Shown piece by piece: positions 26,869 to 43,376 of a stretch of 64,000 nt of DNA. A program made the position numbers and the translations under genes. Below the pieces are notes generated by a model. That model saw nothing but the letters and a program-made list of their open reading frames with translations. It did not search any database and had not been told where the DNA came from. Position 1 is the first letter of the stretch; the number at the start of each line of letters is the position of its first letter. The stretch comes from an uncultured Acidobacteriota bacterium (lineage in GTDB: Bacteria > Acidobacteriota > Thermoanaerobaculia > Multivoradales > JAHEKO01): assembly GCA_963713825.1 (NCBI GenBank), contig CAVQNG010000025.1, positions 704,001 through 768,000 on the forward strand. The letters run 5' to 3'.

Positions 26869-26877
26869 GGACGAATC

Positions 26878-27258: not shown

Positions 27259-27289
27259 GAGCGTTCCAGCCCCGGGTTGCGCTGGGCCG

Positions 27290-29227
27290 CTAGAGGTCTA
27301 GAGGTCTCGAGGTCTCGAGGTCTTGAGGGGGCTTGTCCTGGCGGATGGGCAGCTCGATCGTTACGGTCGTTCCCTGGCCCTCTTCGCTCGACAGCTCGAG
27401 CGTACCGCCGTGCCTTTCGACCGTCTTCTTGACCAGGACGAGACCCAGTCCAGTCCCCTCGGCGGTGAGCTTCTTGGCGTTCGAAGCGCGGAAGAACTCA
27501 TGAAAGAGCTTGTCTTGCTCAACCGCGGGAATGCCAATGCCGGAATCGCTGACTCGGATCTGGACTCTGTCGGGGCCGTCTTGCCGAAAGTGGACCTCGA
27601 CCTCGCCGCCTTCGGGGGTGTACTTGATGGCGTTGGAAACCAGGTTCTCCATGACCTGTTCGAGCAAGTCGGCACCACTGTCCACGTCGGGAATGCCCTC
27701 CTCGACGGTCACCTCGAGACTAAGCCCCTGGCGGGCGGCTGCCTCGCGAAATGTTTGCTCTGTGTAGCTGGCCAGCTCGGTGAGGTCGACAACAACATCG
27801 GGAATCTCGCGGCTCCAGTCCCGTGTCTTGGCGATCGTCAATAGCTCGCCTATCGTCTGGTTCAGGGATCGCAGTCGGACCTCGATACGCTTCAGGTAGT
27901 CGGCTTGTTGGTCCGTCATCTCTCCGAGCAGGCCCTCTTCGAAGAGATCCAGCATCGTCAGGCCAGCGCCGAGTGGGGCGCGCAGGTTGTGCGCCACCTG
28001 CAGCATGAACTGTGTGCGCTCCTGCATCAGAGCCTCGATGGACTCATAGGCCCTGGCACCGTCGATGGCGATGGCCACGAGCTCGGCGGCCAGCTGGAGA
28101 TAGTCGGTATCACTGGCTTGGAAGTGATCGGGAGCCTGCGAATAGAAGCCCAGCGTTCCGATGACCCTGTCTTCGACCTTGAGGGGGGCCAGAACAGCCG
28201 ACCGGATGCCGAGGGCGCTGAGCTCCTGCCGCAGCTGCAATGTGTCGTCCTCGTCGATTCTCGCCTCTACAAGGGTCTCTCCATCGATGATCCGCTGATT
28301 CAAGGGACTCTGGTCCAGATGGACGACCTTCTCCTGGGTCAGCTCACTCGGCAGCCCGTGGGCAGCAACGTACCGCAGGGTCTTCCCGTCTTCGGACAGC
28401 AGCTTGACAGCCACCGCAGGAATCTCCATGACCTTGGCCAACTCCGAGGTCGCAGTGGCGAGGATAGGCTCGAGATGCCGCTCCCCTCCGATCGTCCGGA
28501 CAATGGCATAGAGGCTGTTGAGCTTCTCATTCAGATCGGCCATCTTTGTCGTAGCCACGGCGAGTTCTCGCACCCGCCTTCTCAGTCGGCCCATGATCCG
28601 GCTCACCATGACGACCACCAGGAAAAGGGTCGCAGCGAAGAAGAGCAACATGAGAACCGCGGAGACAGTGTTGCTGACGACCAGGGCTGGCTCGCCGTGA
28701 TAGACGATGTAGTAACTGGGATACCAGCCCGTCACGTCACCGACAAGCAGAATCCAGAGTCCTCCGACTGCCAGTCCCGCCAGGCCATAGGCCGTCCCTG
28801 GGGAGAACTGAATCGCGGCGATGATGACGTGAAAGACCAGGAAGAAGATCAGCGGGCTCGCCACGCCACCGGTGAAGTGGAGAAGCAGGAGCATGGCGGC
28901 ATAGTCGACGAGCACCTCGAGGACGGTGAAGACTCGATCCAGCTGAGGATCGGCCTGCAGCCGACTCTCATAGCGACTGAAGATCCAGGCGAAGACTGCG
29001 TTGTAGAGGGGGCTCGCGAGTGCGATCAGCAGGATCGGCACCACTTGGAACTCGAACCCCAGGGCCAGGCCCACCAGGACGCCCGCGACCATGAGAGGGG
29101 CGACGGCCCAGCGCATCTTGATCTGCCAGAAGCCCCGTCGGCCCCACAATTGAGGGAGGTTCTGGCGTCCCGGAATCAGCTCACGGGCGGCCAATTCGCT
29201 GGAAATGATCGGGTCGTCTCGCAGCAT
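27290..29227 (-). CDS. Membrane sensor histidine kinase (multi-TM, GAF, HisKA, HATPase)
   Basis: About six TM helices, GAF (VLAPL...VIGTL), VAHNLRAPL, NLVSNAIKY, DSGIGI, GTGLGL. Confidence 0.92.
   Translation of the reverse strand: MLRDDPIISSELAARELIPGRQNLPQLWGRRGFWQIKMRWAVAPLMVAGVLVGLALGFEFQVVPILLIALASPLYNAVFAWIFSRYESRLQADPQLDRVFTVLEVLVDYAAMLLLLHFTGGVASPLIFFLVFHVIIAAIQFSPGTAYGLAGLAVGGLWILLVGDVTGWYPSYYIVYHGEPALVVSNTVSAVLMLLFFAATLFLVVVMVSRIMGRLRRRVRELAVATTKMADLNEKLNSLYAIVRTIGGERHLEPILATATSELAKVMEIPAVAVKLLSEDGKTLRYVAAHGLPSELTQEKVVHLDQSPLNQRIIDGETLVEARIDEDDTLQLRQELSALGIRSAVLAPLKVEDRVIGTLGFYSQAPDHFQASDTDYLQLAAELVAIAIDGARAYESIEALMQERTQFMLQVAHNLRAPLGAGLTMLDLFEEGLLGEMTDQQADYLKRIEVRLRSLNQTIGELLTIAKTRDWSREIPDVVVDLTELASYTEQTFREAAARQGLSLEVTVEEGIPDVDSGADLLEQVMENLVSNAIKYTPEGGEVEVHFRQDGPDRVQIRVSDSGIGIPAVEQDKLFHEFFRASNAKKLTAEGTGLGLVLVKKTVERHGGTLELSSEEGQGTTVTIELPIRQDKPPQDLETSRPLDL
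27293..27328. repeat. 8-bp tandem repeat (GAGGTCTN) x4.5
   Basis: GAGGTCT at 27293, 27301, 27309 and 27317, plus GAGG at 27325. Confidence 0.8.
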
Positions 29228-29334
29228 CTGGAGAGCGGCAGAAGAGAGGGGTGCTCGGCCAAGATCGATCGCTGTTCGATCTTCACAGGGATGCTAACAC
29301 GGGCCTGTGAAGCCGCTGGATCGGCAGGCTCAGG

Positions 29335-30714
29335 CTACTCGGTCGAGGGCTCGGCCTCGGCATGTCCTACCGGTGGGCTGGGAAGCGCCTCCCTGGCCTT
29401 CTGGAGCTTTCTATAGAGCGTGCGCTCGCTGACTCCGAGCCGCCGAGCCAGCGCCCGTTGGCTACCGCCAGTTCGGGACGCTGCCCATCCGATGTAAAGC
29501 GCCTCCACATCGCTCAAGGGCACCACATCTCCCTCGAAGCTCAGTCGTGGTCTCGAGACTTCTTTGCCTGTCAGGCAGGCACTGGGGAGATGTTCTGGCA
29601 GGATGATTTTTCCGTCTGCTGTCAGACAAGCGCGTTCCAGGATTTGGATCAACTCGCGGACATTTCCCGGAAAGTCGTAGGCTTGCAGCGCCTCGATTGT
29701 GCTGGGATCGACCTCAGGGCGGGGCTGTAGGAGCTCCAATCGGTGCAGCAGGCTGTCGACGAGAATCGGGATGTCGGTGATTCTGTCTCGCAGGGAGGGC
29801 ACCGCGATGGGGAATCCTCCGATCTGATGTCGTAGGTCGTCCCGAAAACGACCGGTCCTGGCGAGGTCGTCGAGGCTGTGCGTCGAGGAGCAGATGAGGC
29901 GGAACTCCGATCGCTGGGACTGGGTGGCTCCTTCGGGTATGTAGGAACCGGTCTCGAGCAGGCGGAGCAACTTCACTTGTGCGGCCGAGCTGAGAGTCTC
30001 CACCTCCTTGAGAAACAGTGTGCCGCCATCAACCGCTCCGACGAAACCGGTCCGGGATTCATCGGCTCCTGGAAAAGCTCCCTTGGTGTGGCCAAAGAGC
30101 TCGCGCTCGAACTGCCATTCGTGAAGGGCCGCACAGTCGACCGGAACAAAGACGCGGTGAGCGCGAGGACTGATCTCGTGAAGCGCCCTGGCGACGAGCT
30201 CCTTGCCGGTTCCCGCCTCCCCGAAGATGGCCACCGACTTCTCGGTCGGTCCGACGAGCTCCAGATCCTGCAGCATCCGATTGAACATCGGTGAGCGACC
30301 CACCAACCGATCTCGACTGGCCGTGGCGCTGGCGATCTTTAGCGGCTTCAAGACCTCGAGGAAGTTGTCGAGCTCGCCGGTCTCGTCGAAGAGCGGCCGC
30401 ATGACAATGGCAGTATGGACATCGCCCTCCGGGGTTCTGTGAACATGGACGGTGCGTGCCGGCTCTCCCGTTTCGAAGCTGCGCTGCAGGGGACAGAGCT
30501 CGGAGATGCCTTCGCAAGGCACATCGCGGCAGTGGGAGACCTCGAAACAAGGTCGGCCCTTCACATCGTGTCCATCGGAGAAGACCGAACGGAACTGCTC
30601 GTTGGTGGCGACGATCACTCGATCGCGACCGAGCAACATGGCGGCATCGGGCAGGGCCTCCAGTAGAGCCGCGAAGCGGCCGTTTCGGGGTGGGTGCGTG
30701 ACTTGCTCTTTCAT
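29335..30714 (-). CDS. PAS-domain sigma-54 enhancer-binding protein with degenerate AAA+ motifs
   Basis: PAS, Walker [29 protein letters not shown], Fis-type HTH (ARRLGVSERTLYRKL). Confidence 0.9.
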   Translation of the reverse strand: MKEQVTHPPRNGRFAALLEALPDAAMLLGRDRVIVATNEQFRSVFSDGHDVKGRPCFEVSHCRDVPCEGISELCPLQRSFETGEPARTVHVHRTPEGDVHTAIVMRPLFDETGELDNFLEVLKPLKIASATASRDRLVGRSPMFNRMLQDLELVGPTEKSVAIFGEAGTGKELVARALHEISPRAHRVFVPVDCAALHEWQFERELFGHTKGAFPGADESRTGFVGAVDGGTLFLKEVETLSSAAQVKLLRLLETGSYIPEGATQSQRSEFRLICSSTHSLDDLARTGRFRDDLRHQIGGFPIAVPSLRDRITDIPILVDSLLHRLELLQPRPEVDPSTIEALQAYDFPGNVRELIQILERACLTADGKIILPEHLPSACLTGKEVSRPRLSFEGDVVPLSDVEALYIGWAASRTGGSQRALARRLGVSERTLYRKLQKAREALPSPPVGHAEAEPSTE

Positions 30715-30871
30715 GCTGGGTTCCTCGCTGCCACTGGTGTCAGTCCCTGGTGGGAAGTCCCGACACCGAAGGCGTTTGTCGGAGTCTCCGGATTCTCGTC
30801 ATCACCTAGTCGTCGTGGGCGTTCCTGAGAGTTGCTGCCCAGCCTCCTCCCTCCTTCAGTTCGAAATTGCT

Positions 30872-30886
30872 ACAAGCTTCGTGCCA
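30872..30886 (-). promoter_or_regulatory. Putative sigma-54 promoter for the 30714 gene (variant -12 element)
   Basis: Minus strand TGGCAC-GAAGC-TTGT; -24 element matches consensus, -12 GC is GT. Confidence 0.5.
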
Positions 30887-31013
30887 AGCTCGGGCAGCCT
30901 CGAAATCTTCTCTCCCGAGTCGGATGGGTCGGACGCCGCAATAGGGAGAAGCCTCCCCGTCGCCAGGTTTCGAGAGCGGCCCGCGGGCATTTCGTCGAGT
31001 CCCCAACCCGGGA

Positions 31014-31061
31014 CTGCAACCGGTGTCAGAGCGCCGGTGGATCCTCTGCCGGGGATGGCAG
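31014..31061. promoter_or_regulatory. Tandem candidate activator sites (UAS type 2)
   Basis: CTGCA-ACCGGT-GTCAG (31014) and CTGCC-GGGGAT-GGCAG (31046); similar pair at 33023/33065. Confidence 0.55.
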
Positions 31062-31217
31062 AAAAGGGCGCGGCTCGGGCAGCCAGGGCGTCTCTCTCGA
31101 ACGGGTCTGCCGACTCCGTCCAGCGCTCGAAGTCCTCGAAGAACGCTTTGATTCTTGGGTCTTGTCGGGAGTCCCTGTCCGGTTTTGCTGCCACCTGGCA
31201 GAGCCATCTGCCTGTTC

Positions 31218-31232
31218 TGGCACACCTATTGC
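31218..31232 (+). promoter_or_regulatory. Sigma-54 (-24/-12) promoter
   Basis: TGGCAC-ACCTA-TTGC, an exact match to TGGCAC-N5-TTGC. Confidence 0.85.
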
Positions 31233-31328
31233 GCTATCTGCTGGAAACGCAAGGACAGGAGGCGTCCAAGCCTTCTAGAGCGCAGCGGGGCCCCGCGACG
31301 GCCTTGGTCATGGAGCTGGAGAAAGACC

Positions 31329-31511
31329 ATGACCGATCACATTCACCGCCAACCGGAAGCTGTCGTCCTGGGTCTGCAGCTGAACCGAGAGTCGATTGCA
31401 GCTGGTGACCAGCTGAAGGTGTGGTTTCGAGACCGAAGGGAGGTGGCATATCGATTTTATTGCGGTCGAGGGGGCGGAGAAACGAAGTCTTCACAGGCTA
31501 ACCATGATTAA
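31329..31511 (+). CDS. Possible 60-aa small protein
   Basis: GGAG seven nt before ATG; lies between the sigma-54 promoter and the 31533 gene; no recognisable motif. Confidence 0.3.
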   Translation: MTDHIHRQPEAVVLGLQLNRESIAAGDQLKVWFRDRREVAYRFYCGRGGGETKSSQANHD

Positions 31512-31532
31512 AGAAGAGACCTTCTATGGAGG

Positions 31533-32876
31533 ATGGAAATGAACCAGATGAGCCAGAAATCGTGCCTGATCCTCGGGCTCGCGCTGAGCGTCCTGCTGGC
31601 AATTGCTCCGGCGACCCTGGCCGAAAAGCCGGAGGATCCGGGAGGCAAGCCGCAGGATGAACCCGGTGGAAGCTCCGATTTTGCCGTTCTGTATGGCGAT
31701 CTCTACGTCCTGGAAAGGGATGGGAACGGCGTGCCGGTGACTCGCATCGTCACCTACGACGACCCCGAGTATTCAGAACCTGTCGACGTCGATTGCCTGC
31801 AACCGATCGCCGCAGACTGCTCGATGTTGAACCTGTGGGGAGAGATGCCGGGATTCGATGCCGAGCTCTACGACCCATGCGAGATCCACGTTGATGACCT
31901 GGAGTTGGCTCAGGAAGTCTCCTTTGGGCGCCAGAGCGTCGTGCGGACCGACCCTACGGTTATTGACAGCGCCTACTTCGAGGCCTTGAAAGTCCTCAAC
32001 TCCGCGACGGAATACTACGATCCCGACAATGAGCTCCTGGATGTCTCCTTGCCCGTTCGCCTCGACCCGGCGGGAAGGTTCGAGTTCTACATTCCGGTTG
32101 TCGAGGGCGCGACCGGCTGCGTGGCGCTCGAGGATTGCGCCTGGAAGACGATCGATTCGCCCTTGGAGAATCTGGGTTTTTACCGCACTCTGATGCTCGA
32201 CGGCTGCTTGATGCCCGTCACGGTCACCCGTGGTTACACGGATAGTACCAACACGCTTTCGGCGACTGCGGCCGGCTACCTGGTCGACGCAGACCTGGGC
32301 CATTTGATCTGTGGAATGGTCGACGGAGAGCTGGTACCCGATGAGCATCCGGAAAGCCTCGACATGTTGATGGCAGCGGCCTTCTGGGGAGGAGCCGCTG
32401 ACAAGACGAGCCCGGTGGCCCTTGACGAGTTCATCAACGCGAACACCTACCTGGGGATCAACTCGTACGTAAGAGTCGGGGGGACCAAGAAGAAGCCGGA
32501 GTTGGAATTCACCTACTTCGACTTCACTCCCTTCAGTTATGACCGCGCTGCTACCCATCCCGCGGGAGGAGTGGATCCAGGAGAGGGTTTGCCGCCCATT
32601 CCGTCGAGTGCCACGGTCTTGGGGCTTGCGACAGAGGAGCCGACGTTCGAAATTGTCACTCCTTTGATTCTGTTCTCGGGATCTCCTCCTGGAGTAGATC
32701 TGGAGACTGTCGCAGTCCCGGTCTGCAGGGATGGAGTGATGCTCGGGCCCTGCCTCGGCGGCTCCGGGGATGAAGGCCATTGCGGGCCGGCGAACTACTT
32801 CGAACAGGCCACGGAAGATGCTCGCAAGATCGTCTGGTTCGTCCACAACTGGCACATTCCAGAGATCGCGTACTGA
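31533..32876 (+). CDS. Secreted acidic Cys-rich protein of unknown function (paralog A)
   Basis: Sec signal peptide; GGAGG RBS favours ATG 31539; shares five motif blocks with the 33316 gene. Confidence 0.9.
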   Translation: MEMNQMSQKSCLILGLALSVLLAIAPATLAEKPEDPGGKPQDEPGGSSDFAVLYGDLYVLERDGNGVPVTRIVTYDDPEYSEPVDVDCLQPIAADCSMLNLWGEMPGFDAELYDPCEIHVDDLELAQEVSFGRQSVVRTDPTVIDSAYFEALKVLNSATEYYDPDNELLDVSLPVRLDPAGRFEFYIPVVEGATGCVALEDCAWKTIDSPLENLGFYRTLMLDGCLMPVTVTRGYTDSTNTLSATAAGYLVDADLGHLICGMVDGELVPDEHPESLDMLMAAAFWGGAADKTSPVALDEFINANTYLGINSYVRVGGTKKKPELEFTYFDFTPFSYDRAATHPAGGVDPGEGLPPIPSSATVLGLATEEPTFEIVTPLILFSGSPPGVDLETVAVPVCRDGVMLGPCLGGSGDEGHCGPANYFEQATEDARKIVWFVHNWHIPEIAY

Positions 32877-33022
32877 AACAAGCTGTCCAATCGGGCGTTC
32901 GCCTCGCTCGATCGCCAGGTGGCGGAGCCTTTTGAAGGCCCCGCCGCCTCTGCGTTGGGAAGACTCGGCAGTCGAACCCGTCAAGTTGCTTGATCTGCCG
33001 AACGTCGATCTCAGGAACCGGA

Positions 33023-33080
33023 CTGACAAAGATGTCAGCAGGTCGGTTGCGTATTGGTACCGGACCGCCGCCGGTGGCAG
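33023..33080. promoter_or_regulatory. Tandem candidate activator sites (UAS type 2)
   Basis: Perfect inverted repeat CTGACA-AAGA-TGTCAG (33023) and CCGCC-GCCGGT-GGCAG (33065). Confidence 0.55.
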
Positions 33081-33219
33081 CTATCTGCTCGTCCGTAAGA
33101 CTTGATTGCAGGATAGAGCAGTTGATTCGCTCTCCATGTAGCCTGTAAATAGTTACAAATAAGGCACTTAAGCTGAATGACTTGCGACGTACTACATGGT
33201 CATGTTTGGCGTAGTCTGC

Positions 33220-33234
33220 TGGCTCGCTGCTTGC
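33220..33234 (+). promoter_or_regulatory. Sigma-54 (-24/-12) promoter
   Basis: TGGCTC-GCTGC-TTGC(T); preceded by an AT-rich stretch at about 33140-33180. Confidence 0.7.
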
Positions 33235-33315
33235 TACGGAGGTCTCCACCGACATCGAGCAAGGGCTGCGAGTGGGAGGTCGATGCAATCGTTTCAGCAG
33301 GAAGGAGGAGGCACG

Positions 33316-34782
33316 ATGCGAACCTGGAGAGTTGGATGGATGATTGTGACGGCCGCGGTGCTGCTCCCGGCGGTCCCGGCGATCGCGCAGGATCACGGCA
33401 GCGGCGGTCACGGTGGTGGTAGTGGCGGCGGTTGTGGCGACCTGTTCGGCGATCTGATCCATATTCTGCGTGACGATGTCACCGGTCAGCCCATACTGGC
33501 GAAACGCTGGATAGAGATGCCGAAGGAAATACCGGGATACGGCTGGGGCTACTGCCCGATCCCAGTGGACATCGACGGGGTGGAGCTCGGCTTTGCCCCC
33601 CTGAGCTGTGACGTCGATCCGGCGGACGAGGCCAGGGTCGTGGAGGTCGACTACTTCGGCCGTCTTAGCGGCGGGCGCGTCAAAGAGCGCAACATCCGCA
33701 TGCACTTCGACGAGGTGATTCGCAAGATCCGCCACTCGGAGGTCGTCGACCGAAACGCGGCAGGACGATTGAAGATGGGTGAGGGTTGCGATCTGGGCAG
33801 CGATCCGATCACCTGTTCTTTGTGGATCGAGCTCGACTCGCCCGTGGAGAACATGGCCGTCTTCCATCGCCTGATGAAGTACGGCCATTTCCAGACGGAT
33901 CCCAACGAGGAGGATCTCTGGGCCCATGGGGATCCTGCGGCGGGTACGGAGTACCACCCAGCGCTGCGGGCCAACGATTGGGGGAAATTCGTCGGCGAGC
34001 TGGTTCACTTGGTACCAGGAAAAGTCGGTGAGGAGGCGGAGTGCTTCTACCCCAACCCCGACTCGCTAGCTCCACCGGACGTGCCCTTCAATCCGCAGTG
34101 CGCAGTGCCACACAGGTTGAAGAAGCATGACTTCAATCAAGCGGCCTCGCTCCTTGGCACGGCAGCGAGCAAGGACGGTTGGGTGACCGACCACCTGGTC
34201 CAGTACCTCGGGCGCATCCTCAGGCTCACTGTCGATACAACCGACAATCCGTCAGGCGGTAGCCTGCCGACCAAGAAGACCCTGCCGGCCCTGGTCCGGG
34301 AATGCCAAGTGGAAGCTGGCTGGGACCCCGATCCCGATTCGGAGGATCAAGTCGAGCCGCCGTATGTTTTCACCGACTGCGAGGTCGTCGAGGCGATTCC
34401 TGCCATGGAGAACTACGAGCTGTTCGTCGATCTGCAGGAGGAGTTCGTCGACTTCGGCAAAGTGAATTTCAAACGCTGGCAGCGCTATCGCGACGAAGCG
34501 GGAATTCCCCTCGAAGTCGCTGTCATCGAGCCCCTGGGCTGGGTGCAGGAGCCCTGCGACTTCGATCCGGGTTCCGAAGAGCCCTATTGCGCAGCAGCGT
34601 CCTGGATGCCGGTGCAGGATCCTGGCGTACCGCTGATCGAGTGGCTTCGCTCTGTCAACTCCGGATTGGGTAGTGGCAGGGACATCGACGGCTTCGTCAA
34701 GGCTACGAACGACGCCATCCGTTCGGTACAGTTCATCCATAACTACCGCATCCCAGTCGACCTTTGGGACTTCGACTACTGA
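33316..34782 (+). CDS. Secreted acidic Cys-rich protein of unknown function (paralog B)
   Basis: AGGAGGAGG RBS before ATG 33316; signal peptide ending AIA-QD; His/Gly linker; homologous to the 31533 gene. Confidence 0.9.
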   Translation: MRTWRVGWMIVTAAVLLPAVPAIAQDHGSGGHGGGSGGGCGDLFGDLIHILRDDVTGQPILAKRWIEMPKEIPGYGWGYCPIPVDIDGVELGFAPLSCDVDPADEARVVEVDYFGRLSGGRVKERNIRMHFDEVIRKIRHSEVVDRNAAGRLKMGEGCDLGSDPITCSLWIELDSPVENMAVFHRLMKYGHFQTDPNEEDLWAHGDPAAGTEYHPALRANDWGKFVGELVHLVPGKVGEEAECFYPNPDSLAPPDVPFNPQCAVPHRLKKHDFNQAASLLGTAASKDGWVTDHLVQYLGRILRLTVDTTDNPSGGSLPTKKTLPALVRECQVEAGWDPDPDSEDQVEPPYVFTDCEVVEAIPAMENYELFVDLQEEFVDFGKVNFKRWQRYRDEAGIPLEVAVIEPLGWVQEPCDFDPGSEEPYCAAASWMPVQDPGVPLIEWLRSVNSGLGSGRDIDGFVKATNDAIRSVQFIHNYRIPVDLWDFDY

Positions 34783-34828
34783 AGCGGCGGCAATCCGGTG
34801 CTCCGCTGGTCTGGGAGTGCTGCTGATC

Positions 34829-34858
34829 CGGGCCGGGGGTTCTCCAACCTTCGGCCCG
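34829..34858. terminator. Hairpin between convergent genes (probable terminator)
   Basis: CGGGCCGGGGGTT-CTCC-AACCTTCGGCCCG followed by CTGTTCTT. Confidence 0.55.
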
Positions 34859-34904
34859 CTGTTCTTGTGGCAACGCTCCGGGGACGTCTCGGGTTCGGGC
34901 TCGG

Positions 34905-36236
34905 TCAGTGTTCCCTCAGTCGTCGGTAGAGGGTGCGCTCCGAGATTCCCAGCCGATCAGCCAGCTGGGCGCGCGAGCCGTCGAAGCGACTGCCCATCCA
35001 TTGGATGTAGCGGGTTTCGACATCGTCGAGAGATAGGATTCGGTCGATGTCGATGGGGATCGGCATCTCGCAGCCCACGTTTGTGTCGTTCGTCCCGATC
35101 AGGGGCAGGTGCTCCCGGTCGATGCGGCCGCTATCGCTGAGTAGGCAGGCGCGTTCCAGCATGTTATGCAGCTCGCGAACATTGCCTGGGAAGCTGTGAG
35201 ACCGCAGCACCTCGAGGGCCTCGTCGGTCAGGTGGCAGTGGCCGCCGCAGCCCAGGCGATCGAAGATGCAAGCGGCCAGCAACGGAATGTCCTCCCATCT
35301 CTCGCGCAGCGTCGGCAGGTGGATCGGAAAGGCACTGATCCGATAGTAGAGGTCTTCGCGGAACTGCTCGGCCTCGACCAGCTTCGTCAGGTCGCGGTGG
35401 GTAGCGCAGACCAATCGGAAGTCGGAGCGCCGCTGCTCGACGCTGCCGACCCGCCGAAAGGTGCCAGTTTCGAGCAGTCGCAGCAGCTTGACCTGCAGCG
35501 ACAGCGGAATGTCCCCCACTTCGTCGAGGAAGAGGGTGCCCTCGTTGGCCACCTCGACCAGACCTCGCTTGCGCTCATGAGCCCCGGTGAAGGAGCCCTT
35601 TTCGTGGCCAAAGAGCTCGCTCTCGAACAGTGTTTCGGTGAGCCCCGAGCAGTCCAGGGGTACGAAGGGACCGCTGCTCCGTGAGCTCAACGAGTGAACC
35701 GCACGGGACACCAGATCCTTGCCGGTACCCGATTCGCCGAGCAGCAGCACCGTCGTCGGGGTGTCAGCGACCCGCGTTACGAGGTCGAGCATGCGCTCGA
35801 AGGCGGGTGATCGCCCGACCATCTGTCCGTCTCGAGAGGACTTGAGGCTGGCGATCTGTTGCGGGGCCAGCACCTCCAGATAGAAGCGGATTCGGCCACG
35901 GTTGTCGCAGAGCGGATGCACGGTGACCGACTCGTGTTGCTCGCCTTCGGCGGTGTGGTGGATGTGCAGCGCCGGACACCGCGTGCCGCTGGCTCGGGCT
36001 CCGGCCAGGGGACAGCTTTCGCCGAGCTGGTCGCAGGGAATCCTGTAGTGGTGAGAGACCTCGTAGCAGTGCTTACCACAGACCCGATCGCCCTCCGCGA
36101 AGTGTTCGCGGTAGGCCTGGTTGGCAGCGACGATCTGATGTTCATCGTTGATGATGACCGCCGGCTCGCGAAGCCCCTCGAGCACCGAGGGCAGCGTGAC
36201 GTCCGAGAGGGGGGAGATTCTGTTGCTATCGATCAT
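34905..36236 (-). CDS. PAS-domain sigma-54 enhancer-binding protein (intact AAA+)
   Basis: [41 protein letters not shown]; paralog of the 30714 gene. Confidence 0.93.
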
Positions 36237-36245
36237 GTTTGACTC

Positions 36246-36710
36246 TCAGCGGCCGGGGCCGTTGCCTCTCTGCCCGTGTCCGCCGCGTCCCCCCATCGCT
36301 CCCTGACCGGGACCCCCCTGCCAGGCGCCGACGCCATCCCAGAGCGGGATACGGTGGAGCGTGCGCAGGCGCAGCATGGTGTGGCGGGTCAGGTTCTGGA
36401 CCTTGTGCACCTTGGCGGGTCCATCATCGGCTGGGAAGACTCGAGCTTGTATCTGGTCCCCCTGTTCGACCTGGAAATCAACTTCATCTAGGGCGGCTTT
36501 GGGTGCCAGCAGGAGGTCCATTTTCTTCCCCTCTGCTCCCGTGGGTGCGAGGGTTACCGACAGGACTTCGAGATCGCCCTCACCCGGTGCCGATGCGACG
36601 CTCAGAACCGTGCCCTCGACCGTGATGAGCGAGGAGCGCAGATCGTCCTTGGAGCTGGCCCCGATCAGCATGAGCACCGCAAGGCAGATTGCTGCAAATC
36701 GGAGCCTCAT
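36246..36710 (-). CDS. Exported OB-fold protein (MamS/MamX-domain-like) with Gly-rich tail
   Basis: Signal peptide; TVEGTV...LLLAP...GDQIQARV...LRLRTLHRIPLW pattern; ATGA overlap with the upstream gene. Family call from remembered pattern. Confidence 0.7.
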   Translation of the reverse strand: MRLRFAAICLAVLMLIGASSKDDLRSSLITVEGTVLSVASAPGEGDLEVLSVTLAPTGAEGKKMDLLLAPKAALDEVDFQVEQGDQIQARVFPADDGPAKVHKVQNLTRHTMLRLRTLHRIPLWDGVGAWQGGPGQGAMGGRGGHGQRGNGPGR

Positions 36711-37621
36711 CGCACGGGTCCCCGGGTACCTACGGTTGGTGTCGAGACACCGAAGGAAGTGCCGAAGAGAATCGTGAAGTCCTGAGCGGCGTCCGTTAGC
36801 CCGAGAGTAGTGAGAAGGCGCCAGCGCATCTTGCCAAGACTGCGCAGGCCGAAGCCCAATGCCGCCCTTGAGCCCAGGCCATCGACGACTTCGGGATTGC
36901 CCTCCACCCAACCCGACAGGATCAACCGGCCGCCCAGTGGTTCACTCTCGACACCGACGTAGCCCTCGACAACGTCGTTCAGGGTCTGCCAATCGGGATC
37001 GCCCAGGTAGTTCCAGCCGAAACCGCCGAAGCCCGTGGCGGACCAGAACCGGTACTCACTTGTCAGACCGAGGTAGGCGTCCCACTCGCCGGTGCCGAGC
37101 CCTTCGTCGGGATCGGCGGTCGGTACCTTCACTTGCGCTCCGAGATCCATTCGAAAGACCTTGGCACCACCTCCCATCAGGCGCCGGCTGCCAGCCAATC
37201 GAACATCTCCCAGGCCGGAGACCCACTCGTCCTCGACGGTGGTGACCGGGTCCGAGGTCTGGCCGTCGCTCGAGTCGGATCCGGTGCCCCCGGCCGAGCC
37301 GTTGCCGGAATTCGAAGAGATCTGGCTGGCGCTCTGCCCGCCAGATCCGTGCGGTCCTCGCGGCTTTCCCGGTACCGGTCCCTGTCCACTCGGGATGGGT
37401 GCGCCGAGTTCCTTCCGCAGAAAGCCGACGTCGGCTCTGAACTGGTACTTGTCGCCGGTCACGAAGGTGAGCTGGCCAGCTTGGGCAGCGGTATCAGTGT
37501 CGGTACCATAGCTCGCCTGCGTGATTCCACCCAGTAGGAAGAGCTCACCACTGAAAGCGACTACTGGGGTCGACGCCAGCAGGGCCGCGACGATGAGGAG
37601 AACGACAGTTTTGTCAGACAT
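36707..37621 (-). CDS. Putative outer-membrane beta-barrel (MetA-pathway/SphA 'transporter'-like)
   Basis: Signal peptide; GLGDVRL, VKVPTADPDEGLGTGEWD; amphipathic beta strands; Ser/Gly-rich insertion. Confidence 0.7.
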   Translation of the reverse strand: MSDKTVVLLIVAALLASTPVVAFSGELFLLGGITQASYGTDTDTAAQAGQLTFVTGDKYQFRADVGFLRKELGAPIPSGQGPVPGKPRGPHGSGGQSASQISSNSGNGSAGGTGSDSSDGQTSDPVTTVEDEWVSGLGDVRLAGSRRLMGGGAKVFRMDLGAQVKVPTADPDEGLGTGEWDAYLGLTSEYRFWSATGFGGFGWNYLGDPDWQTLNDVVEGYVGVESEPLGGRLILSGWVEGNPEVVDGLGSRAALGFGLRSLGKMRWRLLTTLGLTDAAQDFTILFGTSFGVSTPTVGTRGPVR

Positions 37622-37677
37622 GATCGATTCAGCGGGTCGTCGAGCAAGATCGAGTGTCGAATACGGCATACAGCACC

Positions 37678-37692
37678 GCAATTCCTGTGCCA
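37678..37692 (-). promoter_or_regulatory. Sigma-54 (-24/-12) promoter
   Basis: Minus strand TGGCAC-AGGAA-TTGC, exact consensus, about 55 nt before ATG 37621. Confidence 0.85.
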
Positions 37693-37730
37693 TCCTGAGC
37701 CCTCGATTCGACACCTTCGAGCGCCCGATG

Positions 37731-37760
37731 TTCGACAATTTCGTCGAATACGGTCCTCGG

Positions 37761-37778
<18 letters not shown>
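37731..37778. promoter_or_regulatory. Tandem candidate activator sites (UAS type 1)
   Basis: TTCGAC-AATTTC-GTCGAA, then TACGACGATTCTTGCCG 31 nt later; same layout at 41547. Confidence 0.7.
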
Positions 37779-39134
<1,356 letters not shown>

Positions 39135-39145
39135 GCCTCTGCCTT

Positions 39146-40762
39146 TCAGTCGATTGGGAGCTTCATCACCGCTTCTGCTCCGCCATCTTCGAGATTGACT
39201 AGGGTCACCGATCCTCCATGGTCCTCGGCAACCCGCTTGACCAGTGCCAAGCCAAGCCCGGTGCCGGAATCTCGGCCCGTCACGAAGGGATCGAAAAACC
39301 TGCCGTCCAACTCCGGGTCGAGCCCTGGTCCCTGGTCCTGAATGCGAATCAGTGCCATGCCGTTGTGCTCTGCCGCTTGCACGGCAATCCGCCCCCCAGA
39401 GGGGCTAGCCTGAATAGCGTTGCGAATGAGGTTGATCATGGCTCTGTGGATGGATTGCCGGTCAATCCTCGCGGAAGCCGAGCCGGAGACCTCCTCGAGC
39501 AGCACGCCTCGATCGGCAGCTTCTTCGGACATCAGGTCCAAGACCTCCCGCGCGATGGTCACCAGATCGGTTTCGGAGCGCCGGTCGGACACCGGGCTCG
39601 CCAATTCGAGAAAACCCCGCAGAACTCCTTCGAGGCGGCCAATCTCTGCCCGAATGCGACCGGCAATGCGCCGCAACTCGGTGTTGTCGGGCAACTTTCT
39701 CTCGAGGCGTTGAGCTGCCAGGCCGATGGCGTTCATCGGGCTCCGAACTTCGTGGGCCATTCCCGCCGTCAAGGCACCGGCGGCAGCCAGTCGCTCGCTG
39801 CGACGTCGTGCAGTCTCGGCCTCGGCTAGCCGTTGACTGGCCTCCTCACGCTCACGGGCGCGCAGTCGACTGACGACGGCGAACCCGGCCGCGCTGACGG
39901 CGAAGCCGGTCAGGATCAGCCCGAGTAACAGGGACCTCCACATGGTCTGCGAGGCCGTTCGTTGGAGTCCGCTACCGTCCAAGCCGACGCGTAGGGCAGC
40001 GCTGGTTCCGGCCGGTGATTCGATGGGCATTTCCACTTCTAGAGCGGTCTGCCCGCGGAGATCGAAGAGTCGCTGGTTCGATGGCGGCCTCGGTGGCACG
40101 GCGCCATCGTCCCAGGCGACGTCGACCACATTCCCAGAAGGTTCCTCGCGATAGCTGAGGTAGAGCACCCCTCCTGCGCCTACCAGTCTTTGCAGCAGGT
40201 TCTCGACCCCGAGCCGACGCGCGAAGGTTCGGGCCGTAGACGGATGAACTCGGACCAGCACTACGCCTCCGGAGGGCGTTCGCACAGCAGCGCCCAGATG
40301 CTCGACACCGTCTTCGAGTGAGGTGCCCAGAACAACCTCATCGGCGTCTTTGTTGAAGAGGTCTTGTAGCTCGTCTTTGACCCTTTCGGGCACCCCTTCC
40401 CCCAGGAGCTGGCGTTCTTGCTGGTCTGAGTCATAGAAGACGACCGAGTCGAGGCCGTTGTTGGCCGCCAGATCTTCGAGCAGCTCCTGGTCGTCTCTCC
40501 CAGCCTGTCGCAGCTCCGCCAGGAGGCGCGCGTTGTCGAGCATCTTCCAGGCAATGATCTCGTCGAGCTCGCGGCTGGCATGGGATGCGGCCACCAGCCC
40601 TGGTCCGAGCGACCTCGCCAGGACGGTGGCTTGTGCGGTGAGCGCTGCCTGGACCTGGCTGCGCTGATGGCGCGCTTCGAGGATAGTCCAGCTGAATAGC
40701 AGGACAGCCAGCAGCAGGGAGAAGACAACTAAGGTACGGGCGCGAGCTGGGCTCACGGGCAC
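39146..40762 (-). CDS. Sensor histidine kinase (NtrB/ZraS-like, periplasmic sensor)
   Basis: Two TM segments, ERLAAAG...MAHEVRSPM, NLIRNAIQA, DQGPG, GTGLGL. Confidence 0.93.
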   Translation of the reverse strand: MPVSPARARTLVVFSLLLAVLLFSWTILEARHQRSQVQAALTAQATVLARSLGPGLVAASHASRELDEIIAWKMLDNARLLAELRQAGRDDQELLEDLAANNGLDSVVFYDSDQQERQLLGEGVPERVKDELQDLFNKDADEVVLGTSLEDGVEHLGAAVRTPSGGVVLVRVHPSTARTFARRLGVENLLQRLVGAGGVLYLSYREEPSGNVVDVAWDDGAVPPRPPSNQRLFDLRGQTALEVEMPIESPAGTSAALRVGLDGSGLQRTASQTMWRSLLLGLILTGFAVSAAGFAVVSRLRAREREEASQRLAEAETARRRSERLAAAGALTAGMAHEVRSPMNAIGLAAQRLERKLPDNTELRRIAGRIRAEIGRLEGVLRGFLELASPVSDRRSETDLVTIAREVLDLMSEEAADRGVLLEEVSGSASARIDRQSIHRAMINLIRNAIQASPSGGRIAVQAAEHNGMALIRIQDQGPGLDPELDGRFFDPFVTGRDSGTGLGLALVKRVAEDHGGSVTLVNLEDGGAEAVMKLPID

Positions 40763-40802
40763 ATCCTAGCGCGCTGTCGGGGTTCGAGCGAAGCGCAGAA
40801 AG

Positions 40803-40829
40803 GCAAAGGGGGCGGTGCCGACCGCCCCC
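40803..40829 (-). terminator. Rho-independent terminator after the 41381 gene
   Basis: Perfect 9-bp stem GGGGGCGGT/ACCGCCCCC followed on the minus strand by TTTGCCTTT. Confidence 0.7.
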
Positions 40830-40859
40830 GAGCTCGTGTTGTGTGTGCTGCTGATCGTG

Positions 40860-41381
40860 TCAACCTCTGCCGTTGCCGCCGCGGTTTCCACCACCGCCAC
40901 CGCCTCCACCACGGTTGCCGCCACCCTGGCCTCCGCCCTGGCAGTTGCCGTTTCCAGTCCCCTGGTTGTTCCCACGCTGATGTCCCGCTCCGGAGCCATC
41001 CCGGAGCCGCTGCTGGGTCCCGACCATCTGGCCACCCTGGTTCTTGTAAGAGCTCATCTGTCTGTTGCGTTTCACCTTCATCGATTGCACCTGTCCAGCC
41101 TGGCCCCCAGATCCCTGCATGACCCGGGCCCGAACCTGGTCTCCGACCTGCACGCAATCGGCGCACTGGCCTGCTCGACCCAGCCTCAGCTGCATCTCCT
41201 CGCCCTGTCGGGTTCTGATGGTGAAGTGATCGAACTCGCCATCGTTCTGGGTCTGTTGCTGCTGTTGGAGTTGGATCACCTCTCCTCGCACCTTCTGGGT
41301 ACTCTCCTGAGCCGAGAGGGGGAGGGTGGTGTAGAGGGCCGCCACGATTATCAGGGTCATGATCTTTGCTGCTCGTTTCAT
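40860..41381 (-). CDS. Exported OB-fold protein with CxxC and Gln/Gly-rich low-complexity tail
   Basis: GGAGG RBS before ATG 41381; signal peptide; KVRGEV...LRLG...QCADC...VGDQVRARV; tail QQRLRDGSG...GGGNRGGG. Confidence 0.8.
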   Translation of the reverse strand: MKRAAKIMTLIIVAALYTTLPLSAQESTQKVRGEVIQLQQQQQTQNDGEFDHFTIRTRQGEEMQLRLGRAGQCADCVQVGDQVRARVMQGSGGQAGQVQSMKVKRNRQMSSYKNQGGQMVGTQQRLRDGSGAGHQRGNNQGTGNGNCQGGGQGGGNRGGGGGGGGNRGGNGRG

Positions 41382-41456
41382 GGTTTCGTTCCTCCGCATT
41401 TCCGCAGTGGGTCTGGTTTGTGAGTCCTCTTTCATGCCCATCAACGGTGGGATATA

Positions 41457-41471
41457 GCAGAGTTCGTGCCA
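41457..41471 (-). promoter_or_regulatory. Sigma-54 (-24/-12) promoter
   Basis: Minus strand TGGCAC-GAACT-CTGC(T). Confidence 0.8.
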
Positions 41472-41546
41472 GATCTTGAGAGCGTTGTAACTGTTGAGTT
41501 GAATGCTACTTATGAGAGAGGCGTCGCGTTCTCGACGCTTTCTCGC

Positions 41547-41594
41547 TTCGACAATCGCGTCGAATGAGAGGCCTGGCTTCGACGGATCTTGCCG
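41547..41594. promoter_or_regulatory. Tandem candidate activator sites (UAS type 1)
   Basis: TTCGAC-AATCGC-GTCGAA, then TTCGACGGATCTTGCCG 31 nt later. Confidence 0.7.
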
Positions 41595-41662
41595 CCCGGA
41601 TCGGCGTTGGGATCCGGCATGCTCGCTGAGCGAGACGCTTCTTTGCGCCTGCTCTCCCAAGG

Positions 41663-41693
41663 GCTTGTGATTTTCTTCACAAGCTGTTATGAT
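41663..41693 (+). promoter_or_regulatory. Sigma-70 promoter overlapped by a Rex/CRP-type palindrome
   Basis: TTGTGA-N17-TATGAT with extended -10 TGn; palindrome GCTTGTGA-TTTTCT-TCACAAGC covers the -35 element. Confidence 0.7.
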
Positions 41694-41699
41694 CCTTTC

Positions 41700-41910
41700 A
41701 AGTTAGCTCGAAAGAGCTGGAGAGTATTGACTGGGAGGTTCCCCTTTCGAAGAGTGTTTTCCTACCAACTCTATCGGAGATCGCAAGATCTCGAACGCCT
41801 CTAGATACTCCTATCCCATTCCCTGGAAATCACCAGGGTAAAGTCGAAACCAACCAACCTACAACGGAACCTCCCAATCCTCTCTCTCCGATCGCAAGAT
41901 CGGAGGGGGA
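41700..41910 (+). ncRNA. Candidate structured non-coding RNA (family not recognised)
   Basis: Three GNRA-capped hairpins, an 11-bp long-range helix (41732-41742/41866-41876), C/A-rich unpaired linkers, own promoter, no credible ORF. Confidence 0.65.
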
Positions 41911-42187
41911 GCTCCGCGCTGTCTCCTGAGACCAGCAGAATCAGTGATGGGGCCGGTCGAATTTCTTCTCGCCCGCCTCGATGCGGGCCTCCAGACGGTT
42001 CTGTCTCGGGCAGAGCATCCAGACGCAGAGTCTTCCCGGCTACCGTAAAGATCACCGCGCCCCACGATGTTTGTTGATTGATCGTCCCCATGACATTGGG
42101 GATCGAAGTCAGGAATGCTGCAGTTCGTTGGATTGCCCAGTTCGAGTGCGCCGTCTCTGTCCCAGTCTGGCTTAGACTATCCCAGCG

Positions 42188-43273
42188 ATGTCGACCAAAA
42201 AGGAAGGACTCGGTGACAATGAGAGCTTCGAAGTGAGCCGCGATCCAGCATCGATCCGGAGCGGCTCGAGGCAGGCACCTTTCTTCTCGGTCGTGATTCC
42301 CGTACTGAATGGAGGGCCGGTGTTTCGAGAGTCTCTCGCAGCGCTGCACCGATCGTCCTTCAGGGACTTCGAGGTGTGGGTTGTGGATGACGGCTCGACC
42401 GATGGTTCCGTCGCGGCGGCCGAAGAGTCAGGGGCTCGTCTCCTGGGGACTCGGGGACGGCAGGGACCTTCCGTGGCCCGCAATCTGGGGGCTGAGAAGG
42501 CTCGGGGGGAGTTCCTCTTGTTTGTCGATGCCGACTGCAGTGTCGGGCCGGAGACGCTGAGCCTGGCGGCAGCCGCGTTGCGCGCCGACGAATCACTGGA
42601 TGCTCTGTTCGGGTCCTACGATGACGAGCCGGCCGCCCCCGGATGGGTGGCACAGTACAAGAACTTGCAGCACCACTGGGTTCATCAGCAGGGAGCCCCC
42701 GATGCCTCGACCTTCTGGGCCGGTTGCGGCGCGATTCGCCGCCGAGTCTTCCTGGACCTGGGGGGCTTCGACGAGGTTCGCTACCCTCGGCCCACCATCG
42801 AAGACATCGAGTTGGGTTACCGACTACGGGCCTCGGGCCGGCGCATTCGCCTCGCCAAGGAGGTGCAGGTCAAGCACCACAAGGCCTGGTCTCTGCAGAG
42901 CGTCGTTCAGAGCGACCTTTTCGACCGGGGAATCCCCTGGAGTGAGCTCCTCGCCGGTCGTGAAGGACCCGCCAAGGAGCTCAATCTCGGCTCGGGCGGT
43001 CGGCTGAGCGTGGTCTCGGCCGTTCTGTTGCTGGCCTCCTTCGTCCTGATTCTGTTCGAGCCACGCTGGGCTCTTCTGGCTGGCCTCGCCCTCGCAACCT
43101 TGCTCTGGCTGAATAGGGACTTCTACAGGTTTCTATCGTCCAAGCGAGGACCGGCCTTTCTACTCGTAGCTCTACCTCTGCATTGGCTCTACTACCTGAA
43201 TTGCGCCGTCGCGTTTCCTGTCGGCCAGTTGCGCTACCAATGGCGTAAGTTGCTGAAGGCAGTAGGGGCTTAG
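42188..43273 (+). CDS. Family 2 glycosyltransferase with C-terminal TM helices
   Basis: SVVIP, VVDDGSTD, ARNLG, FVDAD, GGFDE, IEDIELG. Confidence 0.92.
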   Translation: MSTKKEGLGDNESFEVSRDPASIRSGSRQAPFFSVVIPVLNGGPVFRESLAALHRSSFRDFEVWVVDDGSTDGSVAAAEESGARLLGTRGRQGPSVARNLGAEKARGEFLLFVDADCSVGPETLSLAAAALRADESLDALFGSYDDEPAAPGWVAQYKNLQHHWVHQQGAPDASTFWAGCGAIRRRVFLDLGGFDEVRYPRPTIEDIELGYRLRASGRRIRLAKEVQVKHHKAWSLQSVVQSDLFDRGIPWSELLAGREGPAKELNLGSGGRLSVVSAVLLLASFVLILFEPRWALLAGLALATLLWLNRDFYRFLSSKRGPAFLLVALPLHWLYYLNCAVAFPVGQLRYQWRKLLKAVGA

Positions 43274-43376
43274 GGGAATGGGCGAGGGCCCCACAGCCTC
43301 AAAGGTAGGCCGGAGGCAGGATGGACTCCTCAACCCCCAAGCCCCAAGGTTCGGCCGGAAGGTACGGCCGGACGCC

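Follow-up and report, generated by a model that had tools for sequence, protein, structure and literature searches.

The DNA studied here is a 64,000-nt stretch of the genome of an uncultured Acidobacteriota bacterium of the class Thermoanaerobaculia (GenBank assembly GCA_963713825.1, contig CAVQNG010000025.1, positions 704,001 to 768,000), which we call the window and number from its first letter. Between positions 29,335 and 41,594 it carries a cluster of sigma-54-dependent regulators and exported proteins that may be wired as a two-tier cascade, in which one activator turns on the gene of another. Acidobacteria are a dominant but poorly cultured phylum of soils and sediments; to our knowledge, sigma-54 circuits are well studied in Proteobacteria and hardly in this phylum. 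The window has a G+C content of ~62%, and the closest relatives of the genes under study come from metagenome-assembled genomes of Thermoanaerobaculia and other Acidobacteriota. Genes were assigned by Pfam and NCBIfam scans, and export leaders were judged by eye from the N-termini, with no signal-peptide predictor. We call the regulators act1, act2 and the response regulator, and the five non-regulatory products A, B, the barrel, OB1 and OB2; palindromes upstream of the promoters are labeled as upstream activating sequences (UAS) of type 1 or 2. From left to right, the features of the cluster are the following.

29335-30714, minus strand: act1, a degenerate Cys-PAS activator paralog (PAS_4, Sigma54_activat and HTH_8).
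30728-30743, no strand: UAS type 2-like palindrome CTGCCACTGGTGTCAG in the act1 leader, one mismatch, from the pattern scan.
30871-30886, minus strand: weak sigma-54-like element TGGCACGAAGCTTGTA before act1, GT at -12, removed by the GG/GC filter.
31014-31029, no strand: UAS type 2-like palindrome CTGCAACCGGTGTCAG, two mismatches, ~198 bp 5′ of the GG of the A promoter.
31218-31233, plus strand: sigma-54 -24/-12 element TGGCACACCTATTGCG, ~300 nt before A, from the pattern and the GG/GC filter.
31539-32876, plus strand: A, exported, 445 aa counted from the ATG at 31539, with eight conserved Cys and no fold match in the PDB.
33023-33038, no strand: UAS type 2, a perfect CTGACA-N4-TGTCAG, ~191 bp 5′ of the -24 GG of the B promoter.
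33220-33235, plus strand: sigma-54 -24/-12 element TGGCTCGCTGCTTGCT before B, kept at the comparative loci L001, L003 and L007.
33316-34782, plus strand: B, an exported paralog of A, 488 aa, with a His/Gly-rich N-terminus behind the leader (reading frame, leader and hhalign).
34829-34858, no strand: hairpin of 13 pairs between the convergent genes B and act2, from a hairpin scan.
34905-36236, minus strand: act2, a Cys-PAS sigma-54 activator (PAS_4, Sigma54_activat and HTH_8, the same architecture as act1).
36246-36710, minus strand: OB1, small and exported, 154 aa, with a tail rich in His and Gly; its start codon overlaps the barrel stop.
36707-37621, minus strand: the barrel, a FapF-like outer-membrane barrel of 304 aa (AlphaFold2 and Foldseek).
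37677-37692, minus strand: sigma-54 -24/-12 element TGGCACAGGAATTGCG before the barrel operon, from the pattern and the GG/GC filter.
37731-37748, no strand: UAS type 1b, TTCGAC-N6-GTCGAA, its center ~49 bp 5′ of the -24 GG of the 37692 promoter.
37761-39134, minus strand: NtrC-type response regulator (REC, sigma-54 AAA+ with GAFTGA intact, HTH_8).
39146-40762, minus strand: membrane sensor histidine kinase (HisKA and HATPase_c, two hydrophobic segments).
40808-40829, minus strand: terminator-like hairpin (9 pairs, 8 of them GC) with a T-rich tail, between OB2 and the kinase gene.
40860-41381, minus strand: OB2, small and exported, 173 aa, with a stretch rich in Gln and a tail rich in Gly, Asn and Arg (reading frame and N-terminal hydrophobic leader).
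41456-41471, minus strand: sigma-54 -24/-12 element TGGCACGAACTCTGCT before OB2, one mismatch, GG/GC kept, intergenic.
41547-41564, no strand: UAS type 1a, TTCGAC-N6-GTCGAA, its center ~86 bp 5′ of the -24 GG of the 41471 promoter.

All three sigma-54 activators named in a preliminary description of this DNA are recognized by Pfam, with Sigma54_activat scores of 159.6 bits for act1, 221.1 bits for act2 and 238.1 bits for the response regulator. The response regulator carries the full motif set of an active bacterial enhancer-binding protein (EBP), namely GAFTGA, Walker A and B, the conserved arginines and an HTH, and so does act2, with the variant GSFTGA (its orthologs in L003 and L007 have GAFTGA), Walker A and B, the conserved arginines and HTH_8. 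One activator had been called degenerate, and this is act1: it reads GAFPGA for GAFTGA and LFLKE for LFLDE and has a glutamine at the YYR arginine, and with Walker A, PAS and HTH_8 kept it falls outside the active EBPs. Its closest relative is act2 (44% identity over 430 residues). The PAS domains of both contain the motif C-x-E-x2-H-x5-C-x6-C-P, in which C57, C68, C75, E59 and H62 are conserved in all six aligned Cys-PAS proteins; a search with the PAS part gave no sequence match in the PDB. In the membrane kinase, two hydrophobic segments enclose a domain of ~260 aa, presumably periplasmic, and are followed by HisKA and HATPase_c. The best NCBIfam matches of the kinase are AtoS and ZraS and those of the response regulator AtoC, NtrC and ZraR, all far under their cut-offs. 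A single sensor kinase had been counted at first; the gene at 39146-40762 is one, but a second kinase, of the GAF type, lies 107 bp beyond position 29,335, where that count began.

The promoters were sought across the window with the pattern TGGCAC-N5-TTGCW, allowing at most one mismatch, and the counts were compared with those of 100 shuffles. Six matches were found, against a shuffle mean of 1.36, and none of the 100 shuffles reached six; five of the six coincide with sites proposed beforehand, each of them intergenic and facing a gene. When two mismatches were permitted the pattern was not enriched (18 matches, 22 expected), so that only near-perfect sites carry weight. A stricter filter, in which the GG and GC doublets are kept, retained 31218+, 33220+, 37692- and 41471-; four of the five -24/-12 promoters first proposed are thus canonical, but the fifth (30871-30886, minus strand) reads TTGT at -12.

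The two promoter classes carry different upstream palindromes. The exact 18-bp sequence TTCGAC-N6-GTCGAA occurs in the 64 kb only at 37731-37748 and 41547-41564, before the promoters of the barrel operon and of OB2, which bears out the earlier claim that two promoters share it. A second palindrome had been proposed as common to two further promoters, and here the perfect copy at 33023 is accompanied by near-matches at 31014 and 30728; three of the four matches to the type 2 pattern in the window fall within the act1-A and A-B intergenic regions.

A genome scan with a profile of A yielded 126 confirmed loci, of which 80 were kept, and promoters were scanned in 12 of these 80. A B-type gene is present at only three of the 80, all in Acidobacteriota: L001 (Thermoanaerobaculia, 3.7 kb), L003 (Vicinamibacteria) and L007 (Acidobacteriota). 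At all three, B adjoins A and an ortholog of act2 and is preceded by a sigma-54 element (at 1298 in L001, where it aligns with that of the window, at 8079 in L003 and at 7479 in L007). L001 also shows the convergent B/act2 layout of the window; at L003 and L007, B and the act2 ortholog are transcribed divergently, and no sigma-54 element was found on the act2 strand. L001 has two TGACA-N4-TGTCA sites with one mismatch, and L003 has CTGAC-N6-GTCAG ~173 bp before the B promoter, so that the distances to the -24 GG are near-equal for A and B in the window (~198 and ~191 bp) and for B in L003. Since L003 and L007 keep these features together with a PAS activator and have no NtrC-type regulator nearby, we assign the TGACA-type sites and the B promoter to act2, and this link from act2 to B and A, taken by itself, appears quite probable from the sequence comparison. 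The comparison of homologue neighborhoods, suggested at the outset as a check, gave a divided answer: B and A stand together with an act2-type activator in L001, L003 and L007, but the other 77 of the 80 loci have neither an act2-type activator nor B beside the A homologue. Beyond Acidobacteriota, the A homologues do not adjoin sigma-54 activators. The sigma-54 regulators found 3-4 kb from the A homologue in L010 and L012 were set aside as unrelated, as they stand beside NifQ and radical-SAM/FeMo-cofactor genes.

All three activators of the window carry HTH_8, and the window alone fits either pairing of HTH domain and palindrome. In the reverse assignment, the PAS activators would bind TTCGAC-N6-GTCGAA, as autoregulators, and the response regulator would drive A and B. 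We consider this most improbable, because L003 keeps its CTGAC-N6-GTCAG palindrome and the sigma-54 promoter before B beside a PAS activator only, and because no type 1 site with up to two mismatches is found near the A or B promoters of the window.

What joins the two promoter classes in the window is the position of act2. The genes of the barrel, OB1 and act2 are tightly packed, with an ATGA overlap between the first two and a gap of 9 bp before the third, and act2 is the last gene of this operon behind the 37692 promoter, as the preliminary description had it. A sigma-70 consensus scan of 26800-42300 found a single site, which is not near act2. Because act2 lies 9 bp after OB1, OB1 overlaps the barrel stop and there is no sigma-70-like site nearby, act2 is most simply made from the 37692 promoter; and because it lies within the barrel operon and has a PAS sensor of its own, the cascade would need both the signal of the kinase and that of act2.

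We therefore favor, with a probability of roughly 55% as judged from the sequence, a full two-tier cascade at this locus. In the first module, the membrane kinase would phosphorylate the NtrC-type regulator, which would then bind TTCGAC-N6-GTCGAA and fire the promoters of OB2 and of the barrel operon. The hairpin between OB2 and the kinase gene suggests a high output of OB2 with limited read-through, and partial read-through past it may reach the kinase and regulator genes. The barrel-operon promoter would make the FapF-like channel, OB1 and act2. In the second module act2, given its own PAS signal, would bind the TGACA-N4-TGTCA-type sites ~170-200 bp upstream of the A and B promoters and activate both, and act1, made from a weaker sigma-54-like promoter of its own, would most likely temper act2, through competition for sites or in mixed rings. 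The net logic would be that the cell surface is remodeled when a signal from the envelope AND a cytoplasmic one, redox or metal, are both present. The domains, motifs, promoters, palindromes, operon packing, folds and conservation are seen directly; which activator binds which site, the nature of the signals, a feedback role of act1, and where A and B reside and what they do are what we infer. The scheme resembles the one first suggested, with the kinase/regulator pair acting on a first tier and the PAS activator on a second; the distinct palindromes, the place of act2 in the barrel operon and the association of act2 with B and A in three loci agree with it, but the upstream tier was not found in L003 and L007. 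Most of the features first described at this locus are borne out.

Several observations weigh against the cascade. The type 2 pattern is not enriched across the window, where 4 matches compare with 2.9 expected and 35 of 100 shuffles reach 4, and the proposed sharing of this palindrome is only partly confirmed; in L007, no match to it with up to one mismatch was found. No NtrC-type regulator, barrel or OB1 lies within 10 kb in L003 and L007, which have tier 2 without tier 1; the two-tier wiring is therefore at most lineage-specific, and the cascade is probably specific to the present lineage (the L001 stretch is too short to show whether the upstream tier exists). No sigma-54 element was found before A in L003 and L007, where one transcript may cover both B and A. 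At -12, the act1 promoter is without the GC and is a weaker candidate than the others, and the promoter of A stands ~300 nt 5′ of its gene. Since the T-rich-tailed hairpin separates OB2 from the kinase gene, the kinase and the regulator may have a promoter of their own, and act2 could likewise have an internal promoter. The window contains no rpoN gene, and a compact, Cys-rich A is poorly suited to a channel of the FapF type.

The arrangement in L003 and L007, where act2 is divergent from B without a sigma-54 element on its strand and without an NtrC-type regulator, barrel or OB1 nearby, would also fit two independent sigma-54 modules that happen to lie side by side, with act2 made from a constitutive promoter of its own, as its orthologs at those two loci appear to be, and the kinase/regulator pair acting on OB2 and barrel-OB1 only. 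For the window this is rather unlikely in our judgment: the 9 bp between OB1 and act2 leave no intergenic room for a promoter, the lone sigma-70 consensus site in the region scanned is elsewhere, and L001 keeps the convergent B/act2 layout of the window.

The proposed role of act1 draws on L003 and L007. Directly downstream of the intact activator, each of these loci has a Cys-PAS AAA+ paralog (L003:5444-6508, minus strand; L007:4796-5893, minus strand) in which GAFTGA, the Walker A Lys, Walker B and the HTH are all missing; its gene is immediately preceded by a canonical sigma-54 element (6519- and 5941-, respectively). An active activator is thus accompanied by a dead, sigma-54-driven paralog in three lineages of Acidobacteriota (the window, L003 and L007), and act1 is a milder, HTH-keeping version of this paralog. 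From the motifs of act1 and the HTH-less paralogs elsewhere, we propose that act1 probably restrains act2. EBP relatives without GAFTGA act as sigma-70-type regulators in other bacteria, and act1, which keeps PAS, Walker A and HTH_8 and has type 2-like palindromes on both sides of its promoter, might instead be a co-activator or an independent regulator of the sigma-70 type. This is unlikely in view of the degenerate paralogs in L003 and L007, which are without HTH, Walker A Lys and Walker B; given the missing HTH, a protein-protein role fits all three proteins better than DNA-bound activation.

Pairs of EBPs have precedents, and HrpR and HrpS are paired or cascading EBPs. RedR1 and RedR2 are described as a further pair (PMC10084136), and Nla28 is described as a direct regulator of EBP genes in Myxococcus (PMC9765219). 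The likeness consists in two paralogous activators acting on the same promoters, or in an activator gene that lies behind a sigma-54 promoter; here, in contrast, one partner is catalytically dead, and in L003 and L007 it is also without a DNA-binding domain and driven by sigma-54. In a limited literature search on paired EBPs we found no description of a dead, sigma-54-driven partner.

The Cys-PAS domain resembles a known sensor. In OrpR from Desulfovibrio vulgaris, C52, C61, C65 and perhaps D/E54 of the PAS domain are reported to hold a redox-sensitive [4Fe-4S] that switches this sigma-54 activator (PMC8359166). As described there, OrpR has in common with act2 and act1 the PAS, AAA+ and HTH architecture, three conserved PAS cysteines, the first of which is followed two residues later by an acidic one (C57-x-E59 here; C52, D/E54 in OrpR), and target palindromes before sigma-54 operons that lie beside the activator gene and encode proteins of unclear function. 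The Cys spacing is different, with C-x10-C-x6-C here and C52/C61/C65 in OrpR, as is the palindrome, which is of the TGACA-N4-TGTCA type here and GGGCGYRTTTTGCGCCC for OrpR, and the degenerate paralog of our locus has no counterpart in the part of the OrpR report available (PMC8359166). Since the spacing differs and OrpR was compared by description and not by sequence, we treat this as a functional analogy and not as membership, by which the act2 PAS domain resembles the Fe-S redox sensor of OrpR.

The first module can be set beside ZraPSR, an enterobacterial system for envelope stress. There, a small periplasmic protein with a Gly-rich tail is encoded behind a sigma-54 promoter beside the kinase and regulator genes, in divergent gene order. 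The window likewise has a small exported protein with a Gly-rich tail behind a sigma-54 promoter next to a kinase/regulator pair, but in co-directional order. A periplasm-sensing kinase and a sigma-54 response regulator are common to both, as far as ZraPSR is described in PMC4987338. The kinase of the window, however, scores 158.6 where the ZraS cut-off is 479, the regulator 441.9 where that of ZraR is 760 (both NCBIfam), and OB1 and OB2 belong to no Pfam family. The regulatory logic is thus of a known kind, as in OrpR, ZraPSR and the Myxococcus cascades; the cargo and the pairing of an active with a pseudo-activator are both uncharacterized.

An N-terminal leader of the export type was seen in all five non-regulatory products, none of which matched a Pfam or NCBIfam family, and the claim of an exported, uncharacterized system therefore stands. 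The proposed paralogy of A and B was confirmed by hhalign (probability 99.3%, E 7.6e-21 over 244 columns), whereas plain BLAST of A against B finds two short shared motifs only. A word-based search with A returned 80 clusters, and a profile search of 1.84 billion representatives extended the A/B superfamily to 917 clusters at E ≤ 1e-3 and 348 at E ≤ 1e-30. Three proteobacterial homologues of A are, like A itself, without a Pfam match. The AlphaFold2 model of A, built from 44 sequences, has a predicted local distance difference test (pLDDT) score of 85.1 and a predicted template modeling (TM) score of 0.83, and Foldseek found no match for it at E ≤ 0.001 (best E 0.69 in the PDB and 0.49 in BFVD). 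A profile search of the PDB with A gave a best E of 1.3, and the ESM Atlas returned unnamed clusters and one auto-named ‘CARDB protein family’ that has no common Pfam family. The eight conserved Cys of A are as expected of an extracytoplasmic protein. Among 27 long superfamily members scanned, 13 had no Pfam match and 14 did, the domains being FG-GAP, BACON, Big_9, cadherin-like, PKD, Calx-beta, CARDB, DUF11 and Y_Y_Y, with only a weak SprB match in one member. As these are domains of the cell-surface type, the superfamily's sequences point to a cell-surface or extracellular role.

Outside Acidobacteriota, A homologues keep other company. An ORF of ~820 aa is encoded on the strand of the A homologue in 45 of the 80 loci, at a distance of up to 600 bp in 39 and upstream in 37, and all four of these ORFs that were scanned carry BBP2_2 and OMP_b-brl. 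L016:7087-9546 beside L016:9617-10858 is an example of such a barrel/A-homologue pair, and L021 is another. This looks like a conserved two-gene cassette of Alpha- and Gammaproteobacteria and Nitrospirota, of which we found no description in the literature; searches for PF10082, BBP2 and DUF2320 returned nothing relevant. In five deltaproteobacterial or Anaeromyxobacter loci, an ORF of one and the same cluster lies downstream of the A homologue (for example L002:4576-6300 and L005:11201-13282), and both of the two scanned carry Big_5, fn3-like and CopC-like repeats. No conserved neighborhood was found in the Vibrio and Pseudaeromonas loci.

For the barrel, the first reading as a beta-barrel was confirmed by a 12-stranded AlphaFold2 model (pLDDT 80.6), whose closest solved structure, well ahead of all others, is FapF, the channel of the functional amyloid of Pseudomonas (PDB 5o65, 5o67 and 5o68; Foldseek E 1.3e-11, TM 0.55-0.69, identity 14-17%). 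The COG4313 channel 4rl8 follows at E 1.3e-6, and the barrel has the 12-stranded fold of FapF and COG4313-type channels. Its profile, however, matched FapF in the PDB at only E 0.5, which leaves it outside the FapF sequence family, and Pfam gave no match at E ≤ 10 apart from a spurious one. In the model, the first strand directly follows the signal peptide, without the N-terminal periplasmic extension of FapF, and a low-complexity insertion of ~60 aa separates strands 3 and 4. No Fap partners were recognized either, as OB1, OB2, A and B match no family; the modeled likeness to FapF is one of fold and does not extend to membership in the Fap amyloid secretion system. Literature searches that joined FapF with sigma-54 found nothing, and those that joined Thermoanaerobaculia with sigma-54 found nothing related. 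The barrel family comprises 106 clusters, and its two matches with a named source are from Thermoanaerobaculia and Acidobacteriota. A predicted protein of 452 aa, P0177, combines sigma-54 AAA+, lid and HTH_8 domains with a match (57% identity) to the barrel over its N-terminal half; here a regulator gene and a barrel gene were probably fused in gene calling, which hints that regulator and barrel are adjacent on another contig as well.

Channels of the FapF type transport their substrates as unfolded chains. The model of A, in contrast, is compact and its Cys are conserved at eight positions, and A and B are for this reason unlikely to be cargo of the FapF-like channel. If so, the functional tie between the barrel and A/B would be a regulatory one only.

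The OB1 family comprises 48 clusters and has a conserved core and a His/Gly-rich tail. In an Atlas feature search, the clusters nearest to OB1 were those in which 65-97% of members carry PF26390 (MamS_MamX), with 186 shared features; the score of 0.88 is under 0.9 and makes this a lead only, and PF26390 matched none of 25 OB1-family members, although the Pfam copy used may predate the model. The OB fold proposed at first has this lead as its only backing. OB2 has no Pfam match at E ≤ 10. BLASTP of OB1 against OB2 found nothing, and the link of OB2 to the OB1 family profile is weak (hhalign 57%, E 1e-4). For the barrel and OB1, complex prediction gave an interaction prediction score from aligned errors (ipSAE) of 0.55 against 0.00 for the best control, the runs having at least 19% of contacts in common and a partner pLDDT of at least 71. 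In the benchmark of this procedure, 116 of 157 solved complexes and 2 of 215 mismatched pairs attained the mark, but scores up to 0.60 were those of only 18 of the 157 solved complexes and of both passing mismatches; the model thus lends weak support to a barrel-OB1 complex. The matches of the barrel and of OB1 have seven identical longest-contig sizes in common, which suggests a conserved gene pair.

On the side of act1, the cluster is bordered by the following genes.

21778-26359, plus strand: hoxF, U, Y and H (Pfam).
26356-26868, plus strand: ORF of 170 aa after hoxH, at first taken as hoxW, no Pfam match at E ≤ 1e-5.
26878-27258, plus strand: single-domain receiver (Pfam).
27290-29227, minus strand: GAF histidine kinase, 107 bp from act1 and on the same strand.

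The GAF histidine kinase and act1 may be co-transcribed. The adjacency to a hoxFUYHW operon, from which a link to redox, metal or hydrogen metabolism had been suggested, is confirmed by Pfam for hoxF, U, Y and H. On such a reading act1, the GAF kinase and the receiver would regulate the hydrogenase, and the exported proteins would serve redox, metal or hydrogen metabolism; the His/Gly-rich segments of OB1, B and the barrel loop could indeed bind metal, and the PAS domain resembles a redox sensor. Yet no canonical -24/-12 element precedes hoxF, no hydrogenase domain was found among the 31 ORFs scanned in L003 and L007, and act1 is closest to act2. The link to hydrogen metabolism comes down to adjacency, and we regard this reading as very unlikely.

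On the other side, OB2 is followed by a GT2 glycosyltransferase and then a polysaccharide flippase. Polysaccharide genes flank the cluster (42188-44888 and 56425-63915) and encode a GT2 transferase, a Polysacc_synt flippase, GDP_Man_Dehyd/Epimerase, dTDP_sugar_isom and NTP_transferase proteins and a multi-domain glycosyltransferase of 1335 aa.

Several features of the leaders and intergenic regions were also inspected. A riboswitch in the A leader was considered and dropped, as the 295-nt leader is not unusually structured (z -0.19) and has no Rfam match, and so was a small gene, since an ORF of 60 codons (31329-31511) has a G+C content at third codon positions of 0.52, compared with ~0.75 for local genes, and is matched at none of the 80 loci. 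Across 26000-43000, Rfam recognized no RNA element at E ≤ 1. The B leader is near-identical in the window (33236-33315) and L001 (1314-1397), while the two sequences differ 5′ of the promoter; in neither is the leader significantly more structured than shuffled sequence (z -1.6 and -1.0, respectively). Directly 3′ of the A stop lies a GC-rich stretch (32890-32935) with inverted GGCGG/CCGCC ends, conserved in L001, possibly to terminate transcription or to allow processing between A and B. IHF sites with up to one mismatch were not enriched (8 matches, 8.96 expected); one IHF-like match (31141-31153), which is not significant, falls between the type 2-like palindrome and the promoter of A.

If the favored reading is right, the locus works as a compact cascade of the AND type: a two-component system that senses the envelope licenses a second activator, which probably senses redox state. 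Sigma-54 control of the bacterial exterior is described as a recognized theme (PMC3162934); the exported products of the cluster fit it, but it is general and says nothing specific about these families. A wider and much more tentative reading, on which we place little weight, would bring the separate observations together: A and B would define a class of proteins that is widespread and new in structure, sits at the cell surface or is associated with the outer membrane, and works with a beta-barrel of its own. If true, Proteobacteria would use the BBP2_2 double barrel for this and Thermoanaerobaculia the FapF-like channel with a MamS-like periplasmic adaptor, together an unrecognized envelope assembly or export pair. 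In Acidobacteriota, an Fe-S PAS activator would gate the expression of this pair, and its output would be limited by a sigma-54-driven pseudo-activator that poisons the AAA+ ring, a negative-feedback device undescribed for EBPs.

The combination of an active EBP with a dead paralog that is itself driven by sigma-54 may serve more generally to restrain the output of AAA+ activators. The exported proteins form a large family, with a confident model without a match in the PDB, whose members lie repeatedly beside outer-membrane barrels or are fused to adhesion-type domains. A function for the A/B family would annotate hundreds of hypothetical proteins of marine and soil bacteria, including cultured, genetically tractable strains of Vibrio, Roseovarius and Rhodobacter.

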